Source of the DNA: Elsinoe ampelina
Lineage: Eukaryota
Reading direction: 5' to 3'
Length of the DNA: 64,000 bases
Assembly: GCA_010093995.1 (NCBI GenBank)
Contig: ML992504.1
Coordinates: forward strand, 1,268,885-1,332,884
Position numbers and translations under genes: made by a program. Positions 1,951 to 13,503 of this stretch are shown here, one piece after another (within the stretch, counting starts at the first letter, position 1; every line of letters starts with the position of its first letter). Under the pieces are notes generated by a model, which saw nothing but the letters and a program-made list of their open reading frames with translations, made no database searches and was not told the origin of the DNA.

Positions 1951-4753
1951 CAACTGTTAGAATTGCTATTACACCTTCTCTGGAGCGCTATTTACGAATT
2001 ACACCAAGTTTTACAGCTTCAATCGCGGTGGTGGTGGAGAAATTGGATAAGTCTTTATTTTGGTGGTGGTAGCTAACAAATTTGGACAGCCGGAGGGGTG
2101 ACGCTGAATCTGAAAACCTCGGTACCCTCCATTGAGCTTCCACCAGGGCTAACTTACTCAACGTGTCTCAATCACAATCTCTTGCCACAAGACATACAAT
2201 TTAAGACCTACCATAGTTCTAAAATGGACTAACCTTCTCCACGAGCAGCATTTCTCTTTCTCCTTCCCCGCTTCTCCTGCGGGCAGCTCTAGCTCAGGCT
2301 TCAGCTGAGATCCTTGCACGGCGAGCTTATGCAAGGCACATTTCTTCTTTCCGCTGTAGGACGAAGCCCTTGCGCTCCCACGATTTGCGCCTGTTGACCG
2401 GTTCGTGGGATCACACAATCTTATTCTCGGCCCGTCGCGTCGGTCAGAAAACGGCCTATCGTAGTCATTCTCAACGGCCAGCACTTGCCATGGCGGTGAC
2501 TTTATACTCGCTTAGGTGAAGATTCCTGCAAGATCCCGCTGACTCTGACTGCTGAGTTCATGGATTTCGGTCTCGCCAGGGCACAACCCTGTCAACAAAT
2601 AGGTAAGCACCTTTCATGCATATCACATGATTCATCCCTCGCGTTGATCCCGACATACACCACCGTCATTCGTGCCGGCTACCAAACATGGACGGCGAAG
2701 AAAAGTCCAGCTCGCCTACCCCTGATACCGTTGCGACTCCTGAATCATGCCAAAAAGCCATCACTACGCACGACGGTTGTGACAACGAAGACCTTCTGCA
2801 CAACCGCCACAACCGGCAGCATCGCAGCGTCTCAGATCTCAATAACGGCTGGTCAGATCATAACAACGCCGCCGGGATATCGATGTCTTGATGTGCCGGT
2901 GCATGCAGCGCCGTCACTGTCCTCCTCCACGCCAGATATCGGTATACCTCACAAGGCACTACAGTGAACACACTTTCACCACTTTGATCTTGCCGTGCTC
3001 TCACGCCCTCCCTCAGCCCCAGACGCATCTCGCCCGTGCCGACCAACGACAACATCCCAATTTCCGCTCATCACCCACCCGTTGAGGCCTATGCAGAACG
3101 CCCTCTCCTCATCCGGACTCTGTAGCATGACCTCCATACGAACGGGCTCAACAGCCACAATGAGCCAGAACGGCAACGGCGCCGGTAAGCGGTAGGGCAA
3201 CGTTCGGTAGGAGATGTCTCGCTTTCGCCACGCATTGCAGCCGCACCGGTTCGTCAAAGCCACACGTAAGTCACCAGTGCAGGCATCTACACGTCTCCTG
3301 TCGTTCTTACACACGCCATCGACGGAGTACATGCATCTGGACTACTAGTGGACTACTAACATTGAGTGATACTTCACAGTTAGAGGGTGAGGCTCGAAGA
3401 CAAGATGCTCCATAGTCCTTGGACGTGACAGGAACTACGCTCGTGTCGCTCAGCGACTGGACAAGGGCGCTACAATCCCTTCAGCAGCAAGACGCGGTAG
3501 GTGCTGCATGTACATCAGCCCCTCCACCATGAGTCACGAAGCTTGTTACTCGGTACCAGTGATGCGTCAACGAGCTTGGTCTTCTGTATCGGTAAGCATT
3601 TCTCCCTGGCGTAAGAGTACACATGATTACATGACCCATTTCGGATACAAGATCGGCACAGTGGGCTCTGTTTCCAGAAGGTACACCCTGAACCCGACAA
3701 CATGGGAGTACGCATCAGAGAGGCGGACCTGGTCGCCGCTTCTGTCAGGGTACCGCTCCACTTGAGGCTGGCCGGAAGCTCGGGCGATTCTGGAGGTATG
3801 GACCATCAAGGGGATGAGGAAGATCCAAGAGAAAGAGGGTATACATAAGCTGAAGTATCACTTACATCAAACATCTAGAGCTGTCCTCTGCCTTGCTTCT
3901 ACCCCTACCCACATCCATCGACCGCTGCGCTCTTGCTCGCTTTCTGTTAGACCAGACTTGGTAGCGTTGTCTGCATCCGCATCCTGCTGGTCGGAGTCGA
4001 TACTTGTCCGTTGTGGTGAACAGTCTCCAATGCGAGGCGTTTTTGTCATTGATAATTGTCGCTGCCAATTCCCCGTCTTCTTTGCTGCCAATTCTGGGGG
4101 CTCTCGTGATGTCTGGCTGCTGGCGTCTTCGACTTGAATGGCTCGGATACGCTGCCTGTGTATCTCTAGGTGACAGTCTGGACATGGCTATGACTTGCTA
4201 AATGTCAAGGGCTTCGTGCCATGGGCCTTTGATGTCTAATTGCGTGCTAGGAAAGAGGTTGACCCTACAGGCAAGGGAACATTCTTACTGTAGCTACCTC
4301 TTAAAGCAGAGAGCCCGAACGCAGTACTCTCCAAGCTGCCGTCTCGGTCCTTGAGATTGAGAAGCTGTATGACACCCGGGCAAGTTGTGATTAGTAGCAC
4401 CGGTAGCAGCGGCAACACCAGTGGTAGCAGCATTGCTTTCGTGCCCGCGGTCAGCCCCTGTTGTCGTCGTTTGACTCGTTGTCTTGAACTAAGACTCAGT
4501 CAACCTCCAACCACATTCATCACATGCAAGGTAGCAAAAATATGATTGACAGCAACATCATGATCGTAATCACAAACCCACATCACCATCGACCCCTCTC
4601 ATCATCGCCTCCCGCCTCTCCCATCTCCAGTCGTCCCCCGCCGCCAAAATCCCGTCAAACCCTCCCCCCTCCCCTTCCGACCCAAAAATTCGCCCCAGCA
4701 TCATTTCCAAGCCTCCGGCGACGACGATATGCTCATTATGAGCGCAAAAGAAC

Positions 4754-4898
4754 TGCTTTGGCCGTGAATCGAACACGGGGCCCATCGACGCTGATCTGGA
4801 AGGACCAGAGCATGGCAACGATGGATTTTACCACTAAACCTGGGAGATGTTAGGGACTGACGCAATGATGGAAAGGTTGGAAGACGAACCACCAAAGC
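4754..4898 (-). tRNA. tRNA-Gly(GCC) with two intervening sequences: 50-nt GT-AG insert (4889-4840) between positions 9/10 and 24-nt canonical intron (4812-4789) at 37/38
   Basis: Reconstructed mature sequence: GCTTTGG TG GTTT AGTGGTA AAAT C CATCG TTGCCAT CGATG GGCC CCGTG TTCGATT CACGG CCAAAGC A. It has a 7/7 acceptor stem, 5/5 anticodon stem, 5/5 T-stem, B box GTTCGATTC, discriminator A, and downstream TTCTTTT. It closely resembles yeast tRNA-Gly(GCC) as recalled. Confidence 0.9.
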
Positions 4899-4945
4899 GG
4901 GTAACCAGGAGCTGGTTTGATGAAGGGTTGGGCGCAAGAAAACAA

Positions 4946-4951
4946 TATATA
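4946..4951 (-). promoter_or_regulatory. TATA element about 50 nt upstream of the tRNA-Gly mature 5' end
   Basis: TATATA at 4946-4951, in a position compatible with TFIIIB/TBP placement for a start about 20 nt upstream of G1. Confidence 0.4.
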
Positions 4952-5911
4952 CCTATTACGTATTGAGGGAGACCTTGCGTGGGCCAGAGGCTGACCGGGG
5001 TCCTTGTAGCGATCGAGGCGGCAGGCGGCGGCGAGATCGAGCGATTCGAGTGGTGGGGCTTGCAGCGAAGCTTCTCAGCTCCAAAATGGCGCCACTGTGG
5101 CTTCGGGGAAAGCATTGTGCGCGTTGTGGTGGGCCTGGAGCGGTGCGGAGCTTGCTCGATGTGCGGAGGTGTTCCGCGTTTTGTGTCGACCATCGAAGTT
5201 GGAAGGTAAGAGGAATTGATATGACATACATGAATGGCATGGAGAGAAAGAAAGAGATGCTAAGAGAGTGGATGTACTGCCCTTGTGTTTGATCGGGGTG
5301 AGGACCTTTCTGGTGTGGTATGCGTGAGACGGTGGCTTTGTATGTGAGGTCCCTTCTCCTGCTGTAAAGTTCGCATCCATGTCTGCTCTGGTAGAGAGAG
5401 CCCGCCAGGTTATGTATGCGCTGCGTGAGCATCTTCTTTTTTGTTGCGAGGGTTCATGTCGGACAGACTAGAAGCGAAAGGGAGTGCTCAAGCATCTGGG
5501 TGCATGATGCGGAGTTGGTGCTCACTGTCGAGAATAGCTCGGAGATTGTACAGCAATTGGCATTAGCCCACTTTGTAAACAAGAAGAGGTTTGATCATGT
5601 AGTCAGAGTATGTGTAAATCTTCGAGGTGTGAGGCAGGAGATGTCGTGGGCCATCCCGTGGCGAGAATTGCCCAAAAGGGAAGCGGACCAGCCCACTCGA
5701 GACGACGACAGCACATGCCATGGAAAATTTCCCAATACCCAATCATGGACAGGGATATCCTCTGTATTTGGTCTACTACACATCCATTCCTCAAAATCAG
5801 CATCGTCCAGACATCAACGCCGCCTGCTCCTTGCTCTTCAACAACGCTCAACAACAGCAACCACACCCTCTCCACCAACGCCTCGCTAACAACACTCCCT
5901 TCACCTGTCGT

Positions 5912-7307
5912 CTAAGCCCCAATCTTCTGCTTCTTCTCCTGCGCCTCCTTGGTCAAAGGCCCACTCTTGACCATCAACGTCATAACCTCATACAAAGTAT
6001 CCGCCGCCGCCATGGTCGTCAACTCAGCGTTGGTATCATAGGCAGGCGCCACCTCGACGATATCAGCAGCGACAAGCTTAATACCCTCCAAACCCCTGAT
6101 GATGGTCCTCAACTCCCTCGTGCTCCACCCACCAGTCTCCGGGGTGCCCGTAGCAGGGGCGAACGCCGGATCGAGGGTATCGATATCGATGGAGAGGTAG
6201 ACTGGGTTCTCATGCCCGACGCGCTCGTGGATGCGCTTGATGATGCCCTCGGTGCCGATGGTGTCGATCTCGCGCGCCTCGACAATGTGGAAGCCGCAGT
6301 AGCCGTCGTTGTCGTAGTCGGAGGGGCCGGAGAGGGTCGTGCGGATACCGGCGTGGATGTTGGTGTCGTTGCGGAGGAGGCCTTCGTGGGAGGCGTGGAA
6401 GAAGTAGGTGCCGTGGTTGATGGAGGCTTGCTTGCTGGGGGAGCCGCCGAAGACCTTTGGCTTCCAGGTGTCGAGATGGGAGTCGAAGTGGATGACGGTG
6501 ATGGGGCCGTAGGCGCGGTTCATGCTGCGGAGGAGCGGGAGGGTGATGGTGTGGTCACCGCCGAGGGTGATGACGCGGGGGAGCGTCTTTCCAGTCTTGG
6601 AGATGCCGACTTCGCCAGCGGAGGTGGCGGGGGCGCGGGAAAGGATGCTGTTGTGGCCTTCTTCGATCTGCTTGAGGGCCCAGGCGTTGTCGTAGCTGGG
6701 AAAGTAAGTCTCAAGCTAGCTCGTGGGAATGGTCTCCTTACGAAGTTACTGGAATGTCACCACAGTCAACGACCTTGGCCCAGGAGTTGAACGGGTTTGC
6801 GTCGAGTGGGACATTGTATCCGCCGCTGAATCGGACCTTTCGTGAGCCTTTGTTCATGTCAAGCATCAGCTTGTTTCTTGTACGTACTATAGATTGAGAC
6901 GGCGAGAACCTTGTCTGATTCCACTTGGTCCGAAACGAGCACCAGGACGGTATGACGTGCCGGTATCGAATGGAGCACCTGTCTAGTCAGCTTCTGTACC
7001 TCGCTGGCAATCAATTCAAGCTCACCGATGAAGGCAATGTCGTACTTGACATGGTCGTTCTTCAAGCAAGGGTGGTAGTTGATCCTGCCAAATGTCGAGA
7101 TACCAGAGAAGACAGAATCGGCCTATCCAGAAATCAGCTTCACCGGCACCAATCGACCTTGCTCAAGCCTACCTGAGTACCACCATCACCTGGCAGAGTA
7201 TTGTACCACAAATCCTCATGAGGACCATTCAACGGCTCCTGAGTATGATCTCCATGAGCAGAGACCGTCGCAGCAAGAGCTGCAACAGCAGCGACGACCT
7301 TGTACAT
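5912..7307 (-). CDS. Agmatinase/ureohydrolase (arginase family) with N-terminal signal peptide; 5 exons
   Basis: Motifs [52 protein letters not shown] and DIVEVAP. Hydrophobic N-terminus [17 protein letters not shown]. Four canonical GT-AG introns join the exons in frame. Confidence 0.93.
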
Positions 7308-8034: not shown

Positions 8035-9588
8035 CTATTCATGGTCGTGGTCGATGCCGTCCTCGTAGCCGGCTTCCTGTCTATCGCCCGAGTCCAATCT
8101 TGCGAGAGCTTGTTGGGCCTGGTATTCCCAATTGCTGAAAGCGACGATTGCCCACTCTGCGAACCCAACGAGATACAGAGCAATGCACTGTCCAACCCAG
8201 AGACCCGCCAATCCCCAGCCATTGAATGCGAGCCAGATCCCCAAGGGAAGGGCGCCGAAGTAGTAGCTCACAATGTTGACAATGGCGCCAATGTGCTGTC
8301 TACCCGCTCCTCTCAGGGAACCTCCACAAGAGCCATTGAGACCGTCTGCGATCTGGAAGAGTGCCACATATGGCATGACATCTGCCGTGAGCTTGACTAC
8401 GTCCGGGTCGTCGTTGAAGATTTTTGCGTAAAAGTCCTTGACGCCCATCAGGATAGCCAGGACAATAGTTCCAAGCAGCATAGCGAGAAAAGCAGACACA
8501 TTAGCCGCTCTCGATGCACCCTTCGCGTTCTGTGCACCTAGCAAGTTGCCAACTCGAGCAGATGTCGCCACACCGACACCAAACGGGATTGTGTTCATGA
8601 TCTGGTCAGTAGTCATGATAACACTCTGAGCCGCGAGTGGAATCGTGCCGAGTCTTCCAGCTGCGAGAGCGACAATTTCGAATGCCCACCATTCTGTGCC
8701 TACGTGAACGAAGCCGAGGAAAGCGAGTTTACTGAATGTTCCGAGGTTTTGCATACATTTTTTGGACCAGCCGCCCCAGCATTGCGACCCGTTCACGAAT
8801 TTGGCGTATGCTACCAGGAGAAAGAACGATAGCCAATATGAAATGCCAGTCGCGATCGGTGCACCCAGAAGACCGATCTTGAATGTGTATACGAACAGAT
8901 AGTTCAACCCAGCATTGAGTGGAGAAGTGATGAGCAAAACATAGGTTCCCGGACGCATGATCTCCTGAGCCTGGAGGTATTTTTTCATGCACTCAAAATA
9001 GATGTAGCCCAGTCCACCAGGGATCAAAGTCCAGAGGAAACGCGCAGAGTCGCGAGCGATGTACTCTTCCTGCCCAAGAGCTCGGAAAAGCGGTGCTGCT
9101 GCGAGCCAGACTATTACGATAGGGATGTAGAATAAAGTCATGACCAGAAATCCTCGCTGAAGGATAATGCCGAGATCGTGCTTGTCTTTGCTGCCCGTGA
9201 AACTGGCACTGGCGATCGTGTCAATGGCAGTGGTTCCTCCCAAAGCAATCAGCCATGCTGTAGCCATGGCAAACATGTAGGAGAATGCTGCCGTGGCTAA
9301 TGCTTCTGGTGAGAGGCGCCCGACGACCAGAATTGAGACTGTCTGCAGGGACATCTGCAGCGAATATGCTAGTACGACTGGAATTGAGCCCTTGAATAGG
9401 ATCCAGAACTCGGACAAGATGAGTTGCGTCTTCGACTTGTCCTCGTCGTCGAGCGCATCCTGGCTAACCAAAGATCGAGTCTCATCGTCCGGTTTGGGTA
9501 GCAGTCTCGTCCTCTCATTCGGCGGTGTGGCCGACTGACTTCGCTCGTGAGAGCTCGTCGGGCTGATAGTCGTCTGTTCGACCGCCAT
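8035..9588 (-). CDS. MATE-family efflux transporter (ERC1-like), intronless
   Basis: 517-aa ORF with many TM segments and MATE signatures (EWWAFEI, RVGNLLGA, QIADGLNG...LRGAGRQ). N-terminal ERTRLL dileucine motif. Confidence 0.95.
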   Translation of the reverse strand: MAVEQTTISPTSSHERSQSATPPNERTRLLPKPDDETRSLVSQDALDDEDKSKTQLILSEFWILFKGSIPVVLAYSLQMSLQTVSILVVGRLSPEALATAAFSYMFAMATAWLIALGGTTAIDTIASASFTGSKDKHDLGIILQRGFLVMTLFYIPIVIVWLAAAPLFRALGQEEYIARDSARFLWTLIPGGLGYIYFECMKKYLQAQEIMRPGTYVLLITSPLNAGLNYLFVYTFKIGLLGAPIATGISYWLSFFLLVAYAKFVNGSQCWGGWSKKCMQNLGTFSKLAFLGFVHVGTEWWAFEIVALAAGRLGTIPLAAQSVIMTTDQIMNTIPFGVGVATSARVGNLLGAQNAKGASRAANVSAFLAMLLGTIVLAILMGVKDFYAKIFNDDPDVVKLTADVMPYVALFQIADGLNGSCGGSLRGAGRQHIGAIVNIVSYYFGALPLGIWLAFNGWGLAGLWVGQCIALYLVGFAEWAIVAFSNWEYQAQQALARLDSGDRQEAGYEDGIDHDHE

Positions 9589-11017
9589 GTTGGAATTGAA
9601 CGATTATTCGCCTTCTGTGATCCTCAGTGGTAAGCTGACTATAGTGACACAGCCATTCTCTCGAGCCACGTGAGCTCGGCAGGCACCCAGAGTCAATCCA
9701 GACTATTTGAACAAACACAAGATAGCAGAAAAGTGCTGAGATGACGGTGAGTGACCCATAGATAGCAACTGCAGGACCTACATCACCAAGACAAGCAGCA
9801 CCTTTTTTCCAGCCCAGATCTCAATCACGTAACAAGGACATTCCGCCGATCCGCCATAACGTAAACCGCCAGCGGGTTGCATCTTTGGTCAGAACCCTGT
9901 CGGTCCAGGAACCAGTACCACGCACATGGCAGCAGATGGGCATCGGCCGGCGAGACATGTCGTGGAAGAAACCGTGCCAGAACCAAGTGCCGAGCAAGGT
10001 GGCTTATCGAGGAGCACCAGGCGAGGTAGAAACCGGTGCGTGACTAAACAACGCGACAAATATCTACGATGTGCCGTCGAACTCTATTCCGGGCGCCCTC
10101 GTCAGCGCCGGAAATTTGTGTCTCATGGCCTTTTTTACTCAATAACAAAGAGTAATTGACAGGACCTTTCCGCCGGCCAAAAGACGTGTTGGTTTCAAGG
10201 TCGAGTCTGTGTCATCCAAACGGCAGAGATGAACTTGCGTTCCCACAACTGTTTGGTAGGTGATCCGACCACCTCTGAACCCTGCAGGGAAGAAAAAGCG
10301 TTCTGCCCTATACTCGTACTTGCATGGTGAGATGCCCAGCGATAGCCCACGATAGCACCCGCCCTGATCCGAAGGGACCCCGTGCGATTCATGGAACGAG
10401 CAAACGTGCAGGAAAACCTGCATGCACAAGCTCGGTATAGTTTGGACCACCATTTCGCTTGGAAGCCCTACCACGCCGCAATATTGAAGAGGTGCACCAC
10501 GTTTCCGGTATGGTATGGTAGCCCGGTGGACCCCAAGGCTTGCGTCCAGACTCCAGAGTGCTCTCCGTCGAATCTCATCTCAGAAAAAAGCCACCGCGAA
10601 CGTGCTAGTGTGTCTGACCTAGATAAGCAAACGTCCGCGTATCAGCCAGAGAAGCGAGCGAGGCCGTGGCTATCTACTTCCGCCTATCAATCGGTCTGGA
10701 GAAGACACAATCGAGACAGGCTTTTCGTCGAGGATGCCAGATGAGGTGCCACATGTGGTACCTGCTGAGGGTCCGATGGGTTCCTCTTCTTCATTGGAAA
10801 ATCTAGAAAGACCAAGCTTTTGCCAGGAACGCATTGAGGATTCTTGCACGAGCACTTGCCCTTTCCCGACTATAGGCCTTTTGCTGTGTACCTTTTTCGC
10901 AAAGGACAATTTCCTTGTGGTAGCTTTCTCTTGAGCAGGGGGTTTCTCGCTCCAAGCATCTTGTCGCTCCTTTTGTTTCTTCTGTCGTCGCGGCTCTTAT
11001 CAGTACACTTATCAGCC

Positions 11018-12746
11018 ATGTCTGCATCTTCTTATGAGGAAAAGGCCGAACGCGGCGGTACCCCAGACGACAAGACCTACGACAACTCTCGGCAGAGTAT
11101 TTCTGTGGTGACAAGAGAGGGGCAGATCGTCAATGCATCTGGGCACAAGGATCAGCTGAAGAGACAGTATGGTCTGCTCAGTGTTTGCGGTCTTGCCCTG
11201 ACGATTGATAATGCTTGGGTTGCCTTGGGAGGATCTCTCACCGTGTCTATTCGTAAGGGCTTAGTACAACACGGCAGACAGGGCTGGATTGGCTGACCTG
11301 TGTAACAGTCAATGGTGGACCACCAGGTATCCTCTACGAGTTCTTGACGGCATGCTTCTACTACTGCTTCATCGCGGCGTCGGTTGCTGAGCTTGCCTCT
11401 TCCATTCCTTCTTCAGGAGGTGTCTACCACTGGGCTTCGATCACACCAGGCAGGAAATGGGGTAGGACCATTGGGTACTTTGCTGGGTGGCTCAACTTCT
11501 TTGGCTGGATCTTTGACCTTGCCTCGATTGTCAGTATTCCGGCAAACGTACTGGTCGAGTTCTATCGCATCTACCACCCGGAGCTGGAAGTTCAGGCCTG
11601 GCACACATATGTTGCATTCCTTGGTGTGACATGGTTCGGCTGCGCTATCTGCATCTTCGCCAACAGGATCATTCCATTCATTGAGAAGTTTGGCCTTTTC
11701 CTCATCGTAAGTCGGACAGTACTGGAGAAAAAAACGTGGAAGCTAACCTCGCTAGATTGGTGGTGGTATCGCTACTATTGCTGTAGTTGCTGCAGTGCCA
11801 GACACACATGCGTCCAGCTCGTTCGTCTGGAAAGACTTTGTCAACCAGACTGGATGGCCGAACGGAGTCGCCTTCCTGACGGGTGTCTTGAACGGTGCCT
11901 TCGCCATTGGTACAGTCGACAGCGTCACCCATCTGGCTGAGGAGCTGCCCAACCCACGTGTCGACTTGCCCAAGGCCATTGGCGCTCAGATGATCCTGGG
12001 TACCTTTACTGGTTTCGTGTACGCGATCGCCATTCTCTACGCCATTACTGATTTGGACGCTGTCATCGGCTCTCCTGGCGCTTTCCCCTTATCCGAGGTC
12101 TATGCTCAGGCCACTGGATCAACTGGCGGCACCTTTGGTCTTCTCCTCATTGTTTTCCTCTCAATCATGATCTGTGTCATTGGCACCTTCTTGACCTGCG
12201 GCCGCATGTGGTGGTCTCTCGCCCGCGACAACGCGACTCCCCTTCCTCGTCTGTTCTCGAGTGTCAACGAGGGCCTTTCTTGCCCTATCCCGGCGACCGT
12301 TTTCTGTGCTCTGCTGGTTTCTGGATTCGGCGCCATTGCTCTTGGCTCCAAGGTCGCCTTTGCTGATTTGGTCGGATCTTTCATCATCCTCACCTCGATC
12401 AGTTTCCTGTTTGCCATTATTCCCAACATGGTCACTGGACGCAAGAATGTGCCCAAGGGTTGGTTCTGGATGGGCCGCTGGGGTATGCTCGTCAATGGTC
12501 TGGCTGTCGTGTTTACTATCTTCTTCAACATCATGTACTGCTTCCGTAAGTCTTGTCCAGTCTGCTTGGTATATCGAGTTCTAATAACAAACAGCTTACG
12601 CCATGCCGGTGACGCCCGACCTGATGAACTACAACAGCGTCATTCTGGTCGGCTGCTTTGCACTGTCTTTGATCTGGTGGGTTGTGCATGCCCGGAAGAA
12701 TTATCCTGGGCCTCTTATTGGCAGCATGGATATCAAGGGCCAATAG
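11018..12746 (+). CDS. APC-superfamily amino acid/choline/GABA/polyamine permease; 4 exons
   Basis: NASGHKDQLKRQYGLLS, AELASSIPSSGGVYHWAS, HLAEELPNPRVDLPKA, RMWWSLARDNATP. Three canonical introns. Confidence 0.92.
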
Positions 12747-13503
12747 AGGGATGGCTAGGGCAGCACAGTTTCAGCTGTCATTGCTTGACTGTCCAAATGT
12801 ACATAGATCAAGCCAATTGGCCATAAATTACATGTCATTCTTTCCTTGCGCATCTTATCGTCTTGTCCCGGAGTTGGCTATCTGTTGCATTGAAGTTGGC
12901 TGGAGATGTGCCGTGTGCCATCACGCCGTTTTGTGGCTGCCTCAGGCGACAGAATTCTGGAGATGAAACATGCGGAGTTCGATGCACGACATGAGCCAAA
13001 TTATGTCCTGCCGCAATTAATTGATCAGCTTACATTTTTTTTGCCAGCGAGTTTCAGGCCAAATCCCTTGTGATCACCTTCCAACGTCATGTTACTTTTT
13101 CCTTGCTTATCTCCAATCACTGTGCTGGGAAAACACAACATGTCCTGTCGAGTTGCTTTCCGAACTCCGTGCCCCAGGATCAGGGCAGGGCAGGGTTGAT
13201 CTCTGTTCGCTGTAGCCGTACAGTTTGTCGCATCCTCGTCTGATTGCAACATCACAAACGACATCTGTGCTTTATGCTGGTGCCTTGCCGCATTTGCTTT
13301 TCCCACTACCAACCACTCCTCCTTAATTCTGCAGCCTGCATCATTTCAAACTCAATTCCGATGTTTCTGTTTCTTATATGTGTCCTCCTTTTGGCAATGT
13401 AATAGCATGTTTTGGCCTCAGGACTACAGTACAGCTTGATTCTCTTGTTTAGCGATTCCAGTTTATGATACCCATACGGCGATACTCGTCCTCATCCTCG
13501 ACA

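Follow-up and report, generated by a model that had tools for sequence, protein, structure and literature searches.

Can a tRNA gene be interrupted by a spliceosomal-type intron as well as by an ordinary tRNA intron, and still be in use? This question is raised by a tRNA-Gly(GCC) locus on the minus strand of the stretch of DNA analysed here (64 kb in length, referred to below as the window). An initial annotation described the locus as a gene with both kinds of intron and suggested that its transcript may need both the spliceosome and the SEN tRNA splicing endonuclease to mature. Passages of a 2023 review place eukaryotic tRNA introns between N37 and N38 and contrast their removal with spliceosomal splicing (PMC10275265), and part of a 2025 paper describes the nuclear intron types as 'completely unrelated', with the spliceosomal ones in RNA polymerase II (Pol II) transcripts (PMC12530127). 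The annotation further held that U6 and rDNA are known to contain spliceosomal introns and that no example is known from tRNA genes, a statement that agrees both with section 14 of PMC5855946 and with our literature search, which found no description of spliceosomal introns in tRNA genes within its coverage (most subscription journals lie outside it).

A tRNA-Gly(GCC) gene in three exons

Direct reading of the minus strand gives exactly the two-intron anatomy that had been claimed for this tRNA-Gly(GCC) gene. Its parts are as follows.

4754..4898, minus strand: whole tRNA-Gly(GCC) gene, with three exons (9 + 27 + 35 nt = 71 nt) and two intervening sequences; read directly, called by ARAGORN after removal of 4889-4840, and the sole match of a split-tRNA scan.
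4890..4898, minus strand: exon 1, comprising the 5' acceptor strand GCTTTGG, U8 and G9; perfect partner of CCAAAGC at 4761-4755.
4840..4889, minus strand: 50-nt spliceosomal-type intron at 9/10, with GTTCGT at 4889-4884, CTAAC at 4853-4849 and CAG at 4842-4840; read directly.
4813..4839, minus strand: exon 2, from G10 to A37, with the D arm (A-box remainder GTTTAGTGG), the 5' strand of the anticodon stem and the anticodon GCC; from the ARAGORN cloverleaf.
4789..4812, minus strand: canonical 24-nt tRNA intron at 37/38 with an internal hairpin, TCTGG/CCAGA; from the ARAGORN intron call.
4754..4788, minus strand: exon 3, comprising U38, the 3' strand of the anticodon stem, the variable loop, the T arm, the 3' acceptor strand and the discriminator; read directly and from ARAGORN.
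4778-4762, minus strand: T arm (B-box core GTTCGATTC), followed by the acceptor strand CCAAAGC at 4761-4755 and the discriminator A73 at 4754.

The three elements attributed to the 50-nt insert, namely GTTCGT at its start, CTAAC 9 nt before its end and a terminal CAG, are all present on the minus strand between 4889 and 4840. The separate 24-nt insert, which had been described as a normal tRNA intron with a hairpin, is called as an intron by ARAGORN, its boundary being ambiguous by 1 nt because a T stands on both sides. Once the 50-nt insert is removed, every stem in the ARAGORN cloverleaf is paired, as the annotation had stated, and U8, G18-G19 and the T-loop motif of the spliced tRNA are intact. 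The annotation also cautioned that GGTT is repeated at both junctions and that the insert could therefore be drawn elsewhere; the repeat does allow several drawings, but only the one at 9/10 both starts with GT and ends with AG. The minimum free energy structure of the native precursor still leaves room for the acceptor stem and the T arm, as well as for an extended anticodon-intron helix.

ARAGORN finds no tRNA in the native window, with intron mode on or off, and makes no call when only the 24-nt intron is removed. When only 4889-4840 is taken out, it reports a 71-nt tRNA-Gly(gcc) with a 24-nt intron at 37/38, and when both inserts are taken out it reports the same tRNA-Gly(gcc) without intron mode. 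A comparison of scanner runs with and without 4840-4889, which the annotation had proposed as a check, thus yields a tRNA only after removal of the insert. Rfam models give no match at gathering scores and no tRNA match around the locus at E ≤ 10; across the whole window at E ≤ 1 they give one weak, irrelevant match and nothing else. The lack of a native call by either program is also what might be seen if the locus were a dead or dying copy, that is, a normal tRNA-Gly(GCC) gene hit by 50 nt of intron-like DNA at 9/10 and not yet decayed, with other intact copies serving in its place. The stems and invariant positions, all of them intact, argue against this explanation.

A scan for split tRNA genes covered both strands of the 64-kb window and looked for T arms with a 7-nt acceptor strand after them, requiring a perfect complement of that strand, plus U8, at a distance of 45-600 nt upstream. 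It gave exactly one match, the tRNA-Gly(GCC) gene, and since the window yields only this one, the arrangement of acceptor stem and T arm is not a chance pairing. At lowered thresholds, ARAGORN made three calls with introns of 567-1054 nt, all of which were dismissed as implausible. One of these, a 'tRNA-Asn' at 4754-5881 (minus strand) with a 1054-nt intron, is composed of the 3' half of the gene and distant upstream sequence, and it shows how interrupted tRNA genes can be mis-annotated.

The tRNA gene lies in an intergenic stretch about 1 kb downstream of an agmatinase gene. The open reading frame of the latter (5912-6715, minus strand) encodes an arginase-family protein that shares 98% identity with the Elsinoe batatas agmatinase and 93% with its counterpart in Myriangium duriaei, both species being Dothideomycetes (Myriangiales). 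Further along are a MatE-family transporter (8035-9603, minus strand) and a choline-transporter-like permease with 49-nt introns (11036-12776, plus strand), and the neighbouring genes look like an ordinary housekeeping context. On the minus strand, a purine- and G-rich tract within 4600-4700, in which G runs are interrupted by A, begins about 60 nt downstream of the tRNA gene and just after a T5 run.

The 50-nt insert resembles the mRNA introns of the window

The annotation classed the 50-nt insert as spliceosomal in type, and its splice-site and branch motifs, its length and its lack of an endonuclease-type motif (see below) all fit that class. Its 5' splice site has GT with G at +5, as in the fungal pattern GTNNGT, and the same GTTCGT hexamer opens other candidate introns of the window. 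Its CTAAC conforms to the branch pattern YTRAY and is followed by 9 nt that end in CAG. By a rough estimate, the chance is below 1e-4 that in random DNA the boundaries which restore the tRNA would coincide with GT and AG, a branch motif would stand at a suitable distance and the length would be that of the local introns.

The insert had also been said to match the mRNA introns of the window in length, and 50 nt does fit their length distribution. Two introns at 11707-11755 and 12546-12594, each of 49 nt and each with GTAAGT, CTAAC or CTAAT, and YAG, coincide with breaks between the tblastn segments of two homologous choline transporters. In a larger but noisy list of 51 candidate introns (from 243 regular-expression matches), kept where at least 50 open codons stood on both sides, the fullest bins are 45-49 nt, with 8 introns, and 50-54 nt, with 6.

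A search of the 64-kb window for signs that the insert is a repeated element matched only the insert itself; there is no second copy in the window, and the next-best matches are of at most 14 nt (E ≥ 0.49). Its longest T run is 3, in keeping with the earlier remark that it holds no run of four or more T.

Related tRNA-Gly(GCC) genes carry four such introns each

The annotation had suggested a search for other tRNA genes split by GT..AG inserts, and a metagenome scan with a 19-nt junction query found two. The query has AG in place of U8-G9 before exon 2 and cannot match a normal tRNA-Gly gene. It returned seven loci, two of which (L005 and L007) are tRNA-Gly(GCC) genes; the other five are chance matches without any tRNA features. 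In prokaryotic genome_contigs (four loci) and viral_contigs (one locus, on the contig of L004), none of the five loci with the junction pattern is a tRNA gene.

Exon 1 of both L005 and L007 is 9 nt long, and the GT..AG intron after it occupies precisely the 9/10 position seen in the window gene. Each of them carries four GT..AG introns of 44-49 nt, the second at 28/29 in the anticodon stem, the third at 50/51 in the T stem, and the fourth at 57/58 in L005 or 65/66 in L007; the fourth intron of L005 lies inside the T loop and splits the B-box core. ARAGORN calls neither gene in its native form. After removal of the four introns by script, L005 and L007 give the same 78-nt product, which ARAGORN calls as tRNA-Gly(gcc).

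Across the three loci, all nine inserts begin with GT and end with AG, and G is found at +5 in eight of them, the exception being intron 4 of L007 (GTAAAT). A CTAAC, CTAAT, TTAAT or TTGAC motif stands 6-13 nt before the 3' end in seven of the eight L005 and L007 introns, and intron 3 of L005 has CTAAA, in which the final Y of YTRAY is missing. The 3' end is AAG instead of YAG in two of the eight. At 37/38, the intervening sequence of both metagenome genes is only 7 nt long (L005:187-193 and the corresponding stretch of L007), far shorter than the 14-60 nt that a passage of PMC10275265 gives for budding yeast tRNA introns.

An endonuclease-type intron is marked by a 37/38 position or by a bulge-helix-bulge (BHB) motif at its junctions, and the 50-nt insert, at 9/10, has neither by our search. 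We looked for BHB motifs with a home-made script that required a 4-bp helix between two 2-4-nt bulges holding the cut sites, plus a flanking helix of at least 2 bp. By this search, which could miss a relaxed motif, none of the nine GT-AG inserts of the window gene, L005 and L007 contains a BHB-like motif, and on this ground a BHB reading of the insert was rejected. Its background is that multiple non-canonical BHB introns are known in Archaea and a few eukaryotic lineages, as described in parts of PMC4090602 and PMC3978253; the insert would then belong with the non-canonical tRNA introns of Archaea, red algae or nucleomorphs, cut by endonuclease at a BHB or removed in some other non-spliceosomal way, and its GT..AG ends would be coincidental. 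Such a coincidence would have to extend to all nine inserts, each of which also has a YTRAY-like motif (CTAAA in L005 intron 3) at 6-13 nt from its 3' end. Lengths of 44-50 nt, which fit short fungal spliceosomal introns, and the greater conservation of intron ends than of intron middles between L005 and L007 likewise speak for spliceosomal introns, and we regard an endonuclease-cut insert as very improbable.

Selection appears to act on the spliced product

The spliced products of L005 and L007 are identical at 78 of 78 nt, whereas their introns 1 to 4 are identical at 37/51, 41/50, 39/48 and 43/49 positions, with indels, and their flanks at 39/53 and 91/108. Pooled, the introns and flanks agree in 290 of 359 columns (81%), and at that rate the chance of 78 identities in 78 positions is about 6e-8. 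Because the two genes are close relatives of each other, they count as one further lineage, and the window gene is one sequence. The comparison shows purifying selection on exactly the GT-AG excision product in these two related genes. Within the introns, the ends (first 8 and last 16 columns) are identical in 84 of 96 columns and the middles in 76 of 102 (Fisher p = 0.03, for the L005/L007 pair), and better-kept ends are the pattern expected of splice signals.

The fourth intron (L005:260-305; 358-405 of the reverse complement of L007) is the same sequence in both genes, placed 8 nt apart. An 8-nt block of the T arm follows this intron in L005 and precedes it in L007, and the spliced product is unchanged. 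A shift of this kind is hard to explain unless selection sees the GT-AG excision product; between such close relatives it apparently reflects intron sliding or re-insertion.

Downstream of the genes, the flanks that are identical at 91 of 108 positions (L005:322-427 and 414-524 of the reverse complement of L007) include long, perfectly conserved blocks after the T run, and may contain another conserved element or gene.

The mature tRNA of the window gene is identical to that of L005 and L007 at 63 of 71 nt. The eight differences make up four base pairs, three in the acceptor stem and one in the anticodon stem, and all are compensatory.

These comparisons bear on the possibility, raised above by the lack of native scanner calls, that the window locus is a dead or dying copy. 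L005 and L007, with an intron at the same 9/10 position and exons under clear purifying selection, show the opposite of decay, and the wholly compensatory nature of the differences between their tRNAs and that of the window also weighs against a dead copy. So do the insert boundaries that restore the tRNA, which fall precisely on GT and AG, the suitably placed branch motif and the locally typical intron length, as well as the TATA element before exon 1 and the T run beyond the gene. What sustains this explanation is that the A box is displaced from the gene start and that the window offers one locus, for which the evidence of constraint comes from L005 and L007 and not from the copy itself. 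Taking these points together, we consider a dead or dying copy rather unlikely.

Transcription signals and the polymerase

Three candidate transcription signals flank the window gene.

4945..4951, minus strand: TATATAT, candidate TATA element starting 53 nt upstream of tRNA position 1; motif match, with a putative function.
4746..4749, minus strand: T4 run 5 nt after the discriminator, candidate terminator for RNA polymerase III (Pol III); read directly.
4684..4688, minus strand: T5 run 66 nt downstream, possible back-up terminator; from a motif scan.

A TATA-like element precedes exon 1 in all three loci, at -53 in the window, about -35 in L005 and -32 in L007; for scale, the 128 kb obtained by counting the window on both strands contains 39 matches to TATAWAW. 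The window element lies farther upstream than those of L005 and L007, which counts against the mechanism proposed below. Each gene is also followed within 5-17 nt by a run of at least four T, namely T4 at +5 in the window, T8 at +12 in L005 and T7 at +17 in L007. A T4 run is a weak terminator for fungi. None of the nine inserts contains TTTT; as shuffled versions of single inserts contain it in only 3-44% of trials, this absence is not significant, and avoidance of T runs was dropped as evidence for Pol III.

The A box and B box are assigned here by their consensus motifs. In the window gene, the insert interrupts the A box after G9 and adds about 50 nt to its normal distance from exon 1. In none of the three loci does the A box keep its usual distance from the start of the gene; the B-box core is split in L005 and intact at 4776-4764 in the window. 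If TFIIIC placed the start site, transcription would begin within the 50-nt intron. The displaced A box and the split B box of L005 therefore indicate that the usual internal promoter is not the whole story, and by analogy with U6-type Pol III genes we infer that the start site is set by an upstream element.

Contigs of runs X3, X4, X7 and X13 over 4300-6300 leave 4597-5266 uncovered and are thus uninformative on expression or splicing of the tRNA. The RNA-type contigs of the agmatinase gene end near 5750-5758. Low-depth contigs of X3 (depth 3.6-5; a run guessed to be RNA) cover 4340-4596 and 5267-5589, flanking the tRNA gene, and could be weak transcripts or DNA carry-over.

A serious alternative to Pol III is that the same structure, with the same spliceosomal removal of the insert, forms a small Pol II unit with a TATA box and a capped transcript, from which RNase P and RNase Z free the tRNA. 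Spliceosomal splicing is normally coupled to Pol II transcripts, as a passage of PMC12530127 has it, yet U6 is a precedent for the splicing of Pol III transcripts (PMC5855946, section 14). The TATA-like elements upstream of all three genes would suit a Pol II unit, as would the disruption of the internal promoter, with the A box displaced in all three and the B box split in L005, whereas the T4, T8 and T7 runs within 5-17 nt of the gene ends resemble Pol III terminators, a resemblance to which the nine inserts without TTTT add weakly. Agmatinase RNA contigs (X3 and X4) stop near 5758 and leave the tRNA gene outside, which tells against a Pol II unit only so far as contigs, which cannot show transcript ends, can do so. 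In our judgement a Pol II unit is unlikely, and the gene is probably transcribed by Pol III.

A proposed maturation pathway

We infer the pathway that follows, including transcription, the polymerase, the order of the steps and splicing itself, from the DNA sequence. Transcription would start upstream of exon 1, at a site that the TATA element, and not the displaced A box, would determine; the enzyme would most likely be Pol III, stopping at the T run just after the gene. The spliceosome would take out the 50-nt GT..CTAAC..AG intron at 9/10 and join U8-G9 to G10, so that the D arm could form and the tRNA could fold into its cloverleaf. Next, the tRNA splicing endonuclease and ligase would remove the 24-nt intron at 37/38, and last the ends would be trimmed and CCA added. 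A point against the proposal is that the exons of these genes are extreme for spliceosomal splicing: the outermost exons measure 8-9 nt, and one internal exon of L005 only 7 nt.

Of the earlier proposal that both the spliceosome and SEN act on this transcript, the anatomy and the spliceosomal type of the insert stand, and the splicing step itself is predicted. Among the explanations considered, this proposal is the best supported by the sequences, and it is strengthened by L005 and L007, with four such introns each. Taken as a whole, the claim that the window holds a working nuclear tRNA-Gly(GCC) gene of an Elsinoe-like Dothideomycete, transcribed by Pol III and processed by the spliceosome and then by SEN, seems to us evenly balanced between right and wrong. 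We think it fairly probable that true spliceosomal introns have invaded nuclear tRNA genes in two or more lineages of ascomycetes, with one intron in the gene of the Elsinoe-like fungus and four per gene in L005 and L007, and that these genes are still in use and need the spliceosome and then the tRNA endonuclease; the 8-nt shift of the fourth intron would then be a sign that introns have moved within a tRNA, for instance through reverse splicing. The 50-nt intron itself was probably gained at a proto-splice-like site of the form G/GT, for which reverse splicing, an introner-type process or some other route are candidates.

Comparison with known systems

The introns of U6 genes are reportedly the subject of Canzler et al. 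2016. Like fungal U6 genes, the genes described here are short, highly structured RNA genes of Pol III type with one to four introns and upstream TATA-type elements. The U6 RNA of S. pombe is made by Pol III and has its intron removed by the spliceosome; in some fungi the number of introns in a U6 gene reaches four (PMC5855946, section 14). Intron gain by reverse splicing in U6 is usually explained by the place of this RNA at the catalytic centre of the spliceosome, a proximity that tRNAs do not share. The window gene differs from U6 also in its second, endonuclease-type intron, which would make two splicing systems necessary, and exons here are as short as 7-9 nt.

Spliceosomal introns also occur in the U1, U2, U5 and rRNA genes of fungi (PMC5855946, section 14) and, according to part of PMC5832005, in U3 snoRNA genes. 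As in those genes, the introns here lie in non-coding RNA genes and are recognised largely from sequence signals; in contrast to the tRNA genes, whose internal promoter overlaps the interrupted sequence, those genes are mostly Pol II (or Pol I) units. No tRNA genes are among the examples given in section 14 of PMC5855946 and in the part of PMC5832005 on which we draw.

The 24-nt intron at 4812-4789 is of the canonical eukaryotic kind, situated at 37/38 and associated with SEN/TSEN. The 50-nt insert is unlike canonical tRNA introns in its 9/10 position and its GT..branch..AG signals, and in having, by our search, neither a BHB nor an anticodon-intron helix. The genes recall the tRNA genes of Archaea, Cyanidioschyzon and nucleomorphs in that they are interrupted at more than one site, the D arm and the T arm among them, and are missed by standard scanners. 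Unlike the introns of those groups, which are BHB-defined and endonuclease-cut according to parts of PMC3978253 and PMC4090602, the introns here have spliceosomal signals and no BHB by our search.

In Dothideomycetes, short introns have recently been spreading and may be moved by the spliceosome, as stated in a passage of PMC11146597 that cites van der Burgt 2012 and Collemare 2015. The insert resembles such introner-like elements in its fungal class, in what looks like recent gain, in being a short non-coding intron and perhaps in spread by the spliceosome (part of PMC11146597). It is unlike introners, which form multi-copy families, in being without a second copy in the 64-kb window.

Implications for fungal tRNA genes

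If the proposed pathway is true, the list of non-coding RNAs with spliceosomal introns would extend to the most abundant Pol III class, and exons of 7-9 nt, in a transcript able to fold into a tRNA, would still be spliced. The genes would provide a compact natural test case for intron gain and sliding, and a tRNA that needs both machines would cross intron classes that reviews treat as separate, as in the relevant parts of PMC12530127 and PMC10275265. Neither ARAGORN nor the Rfam tRNA model detects such genes at all, and tRNA genes may thus be undercounted in fungi. The supply of a tRNA would also be coupled to splicing capacity, and some fungi may need the mRNA splicing machinery to make a tRNA.
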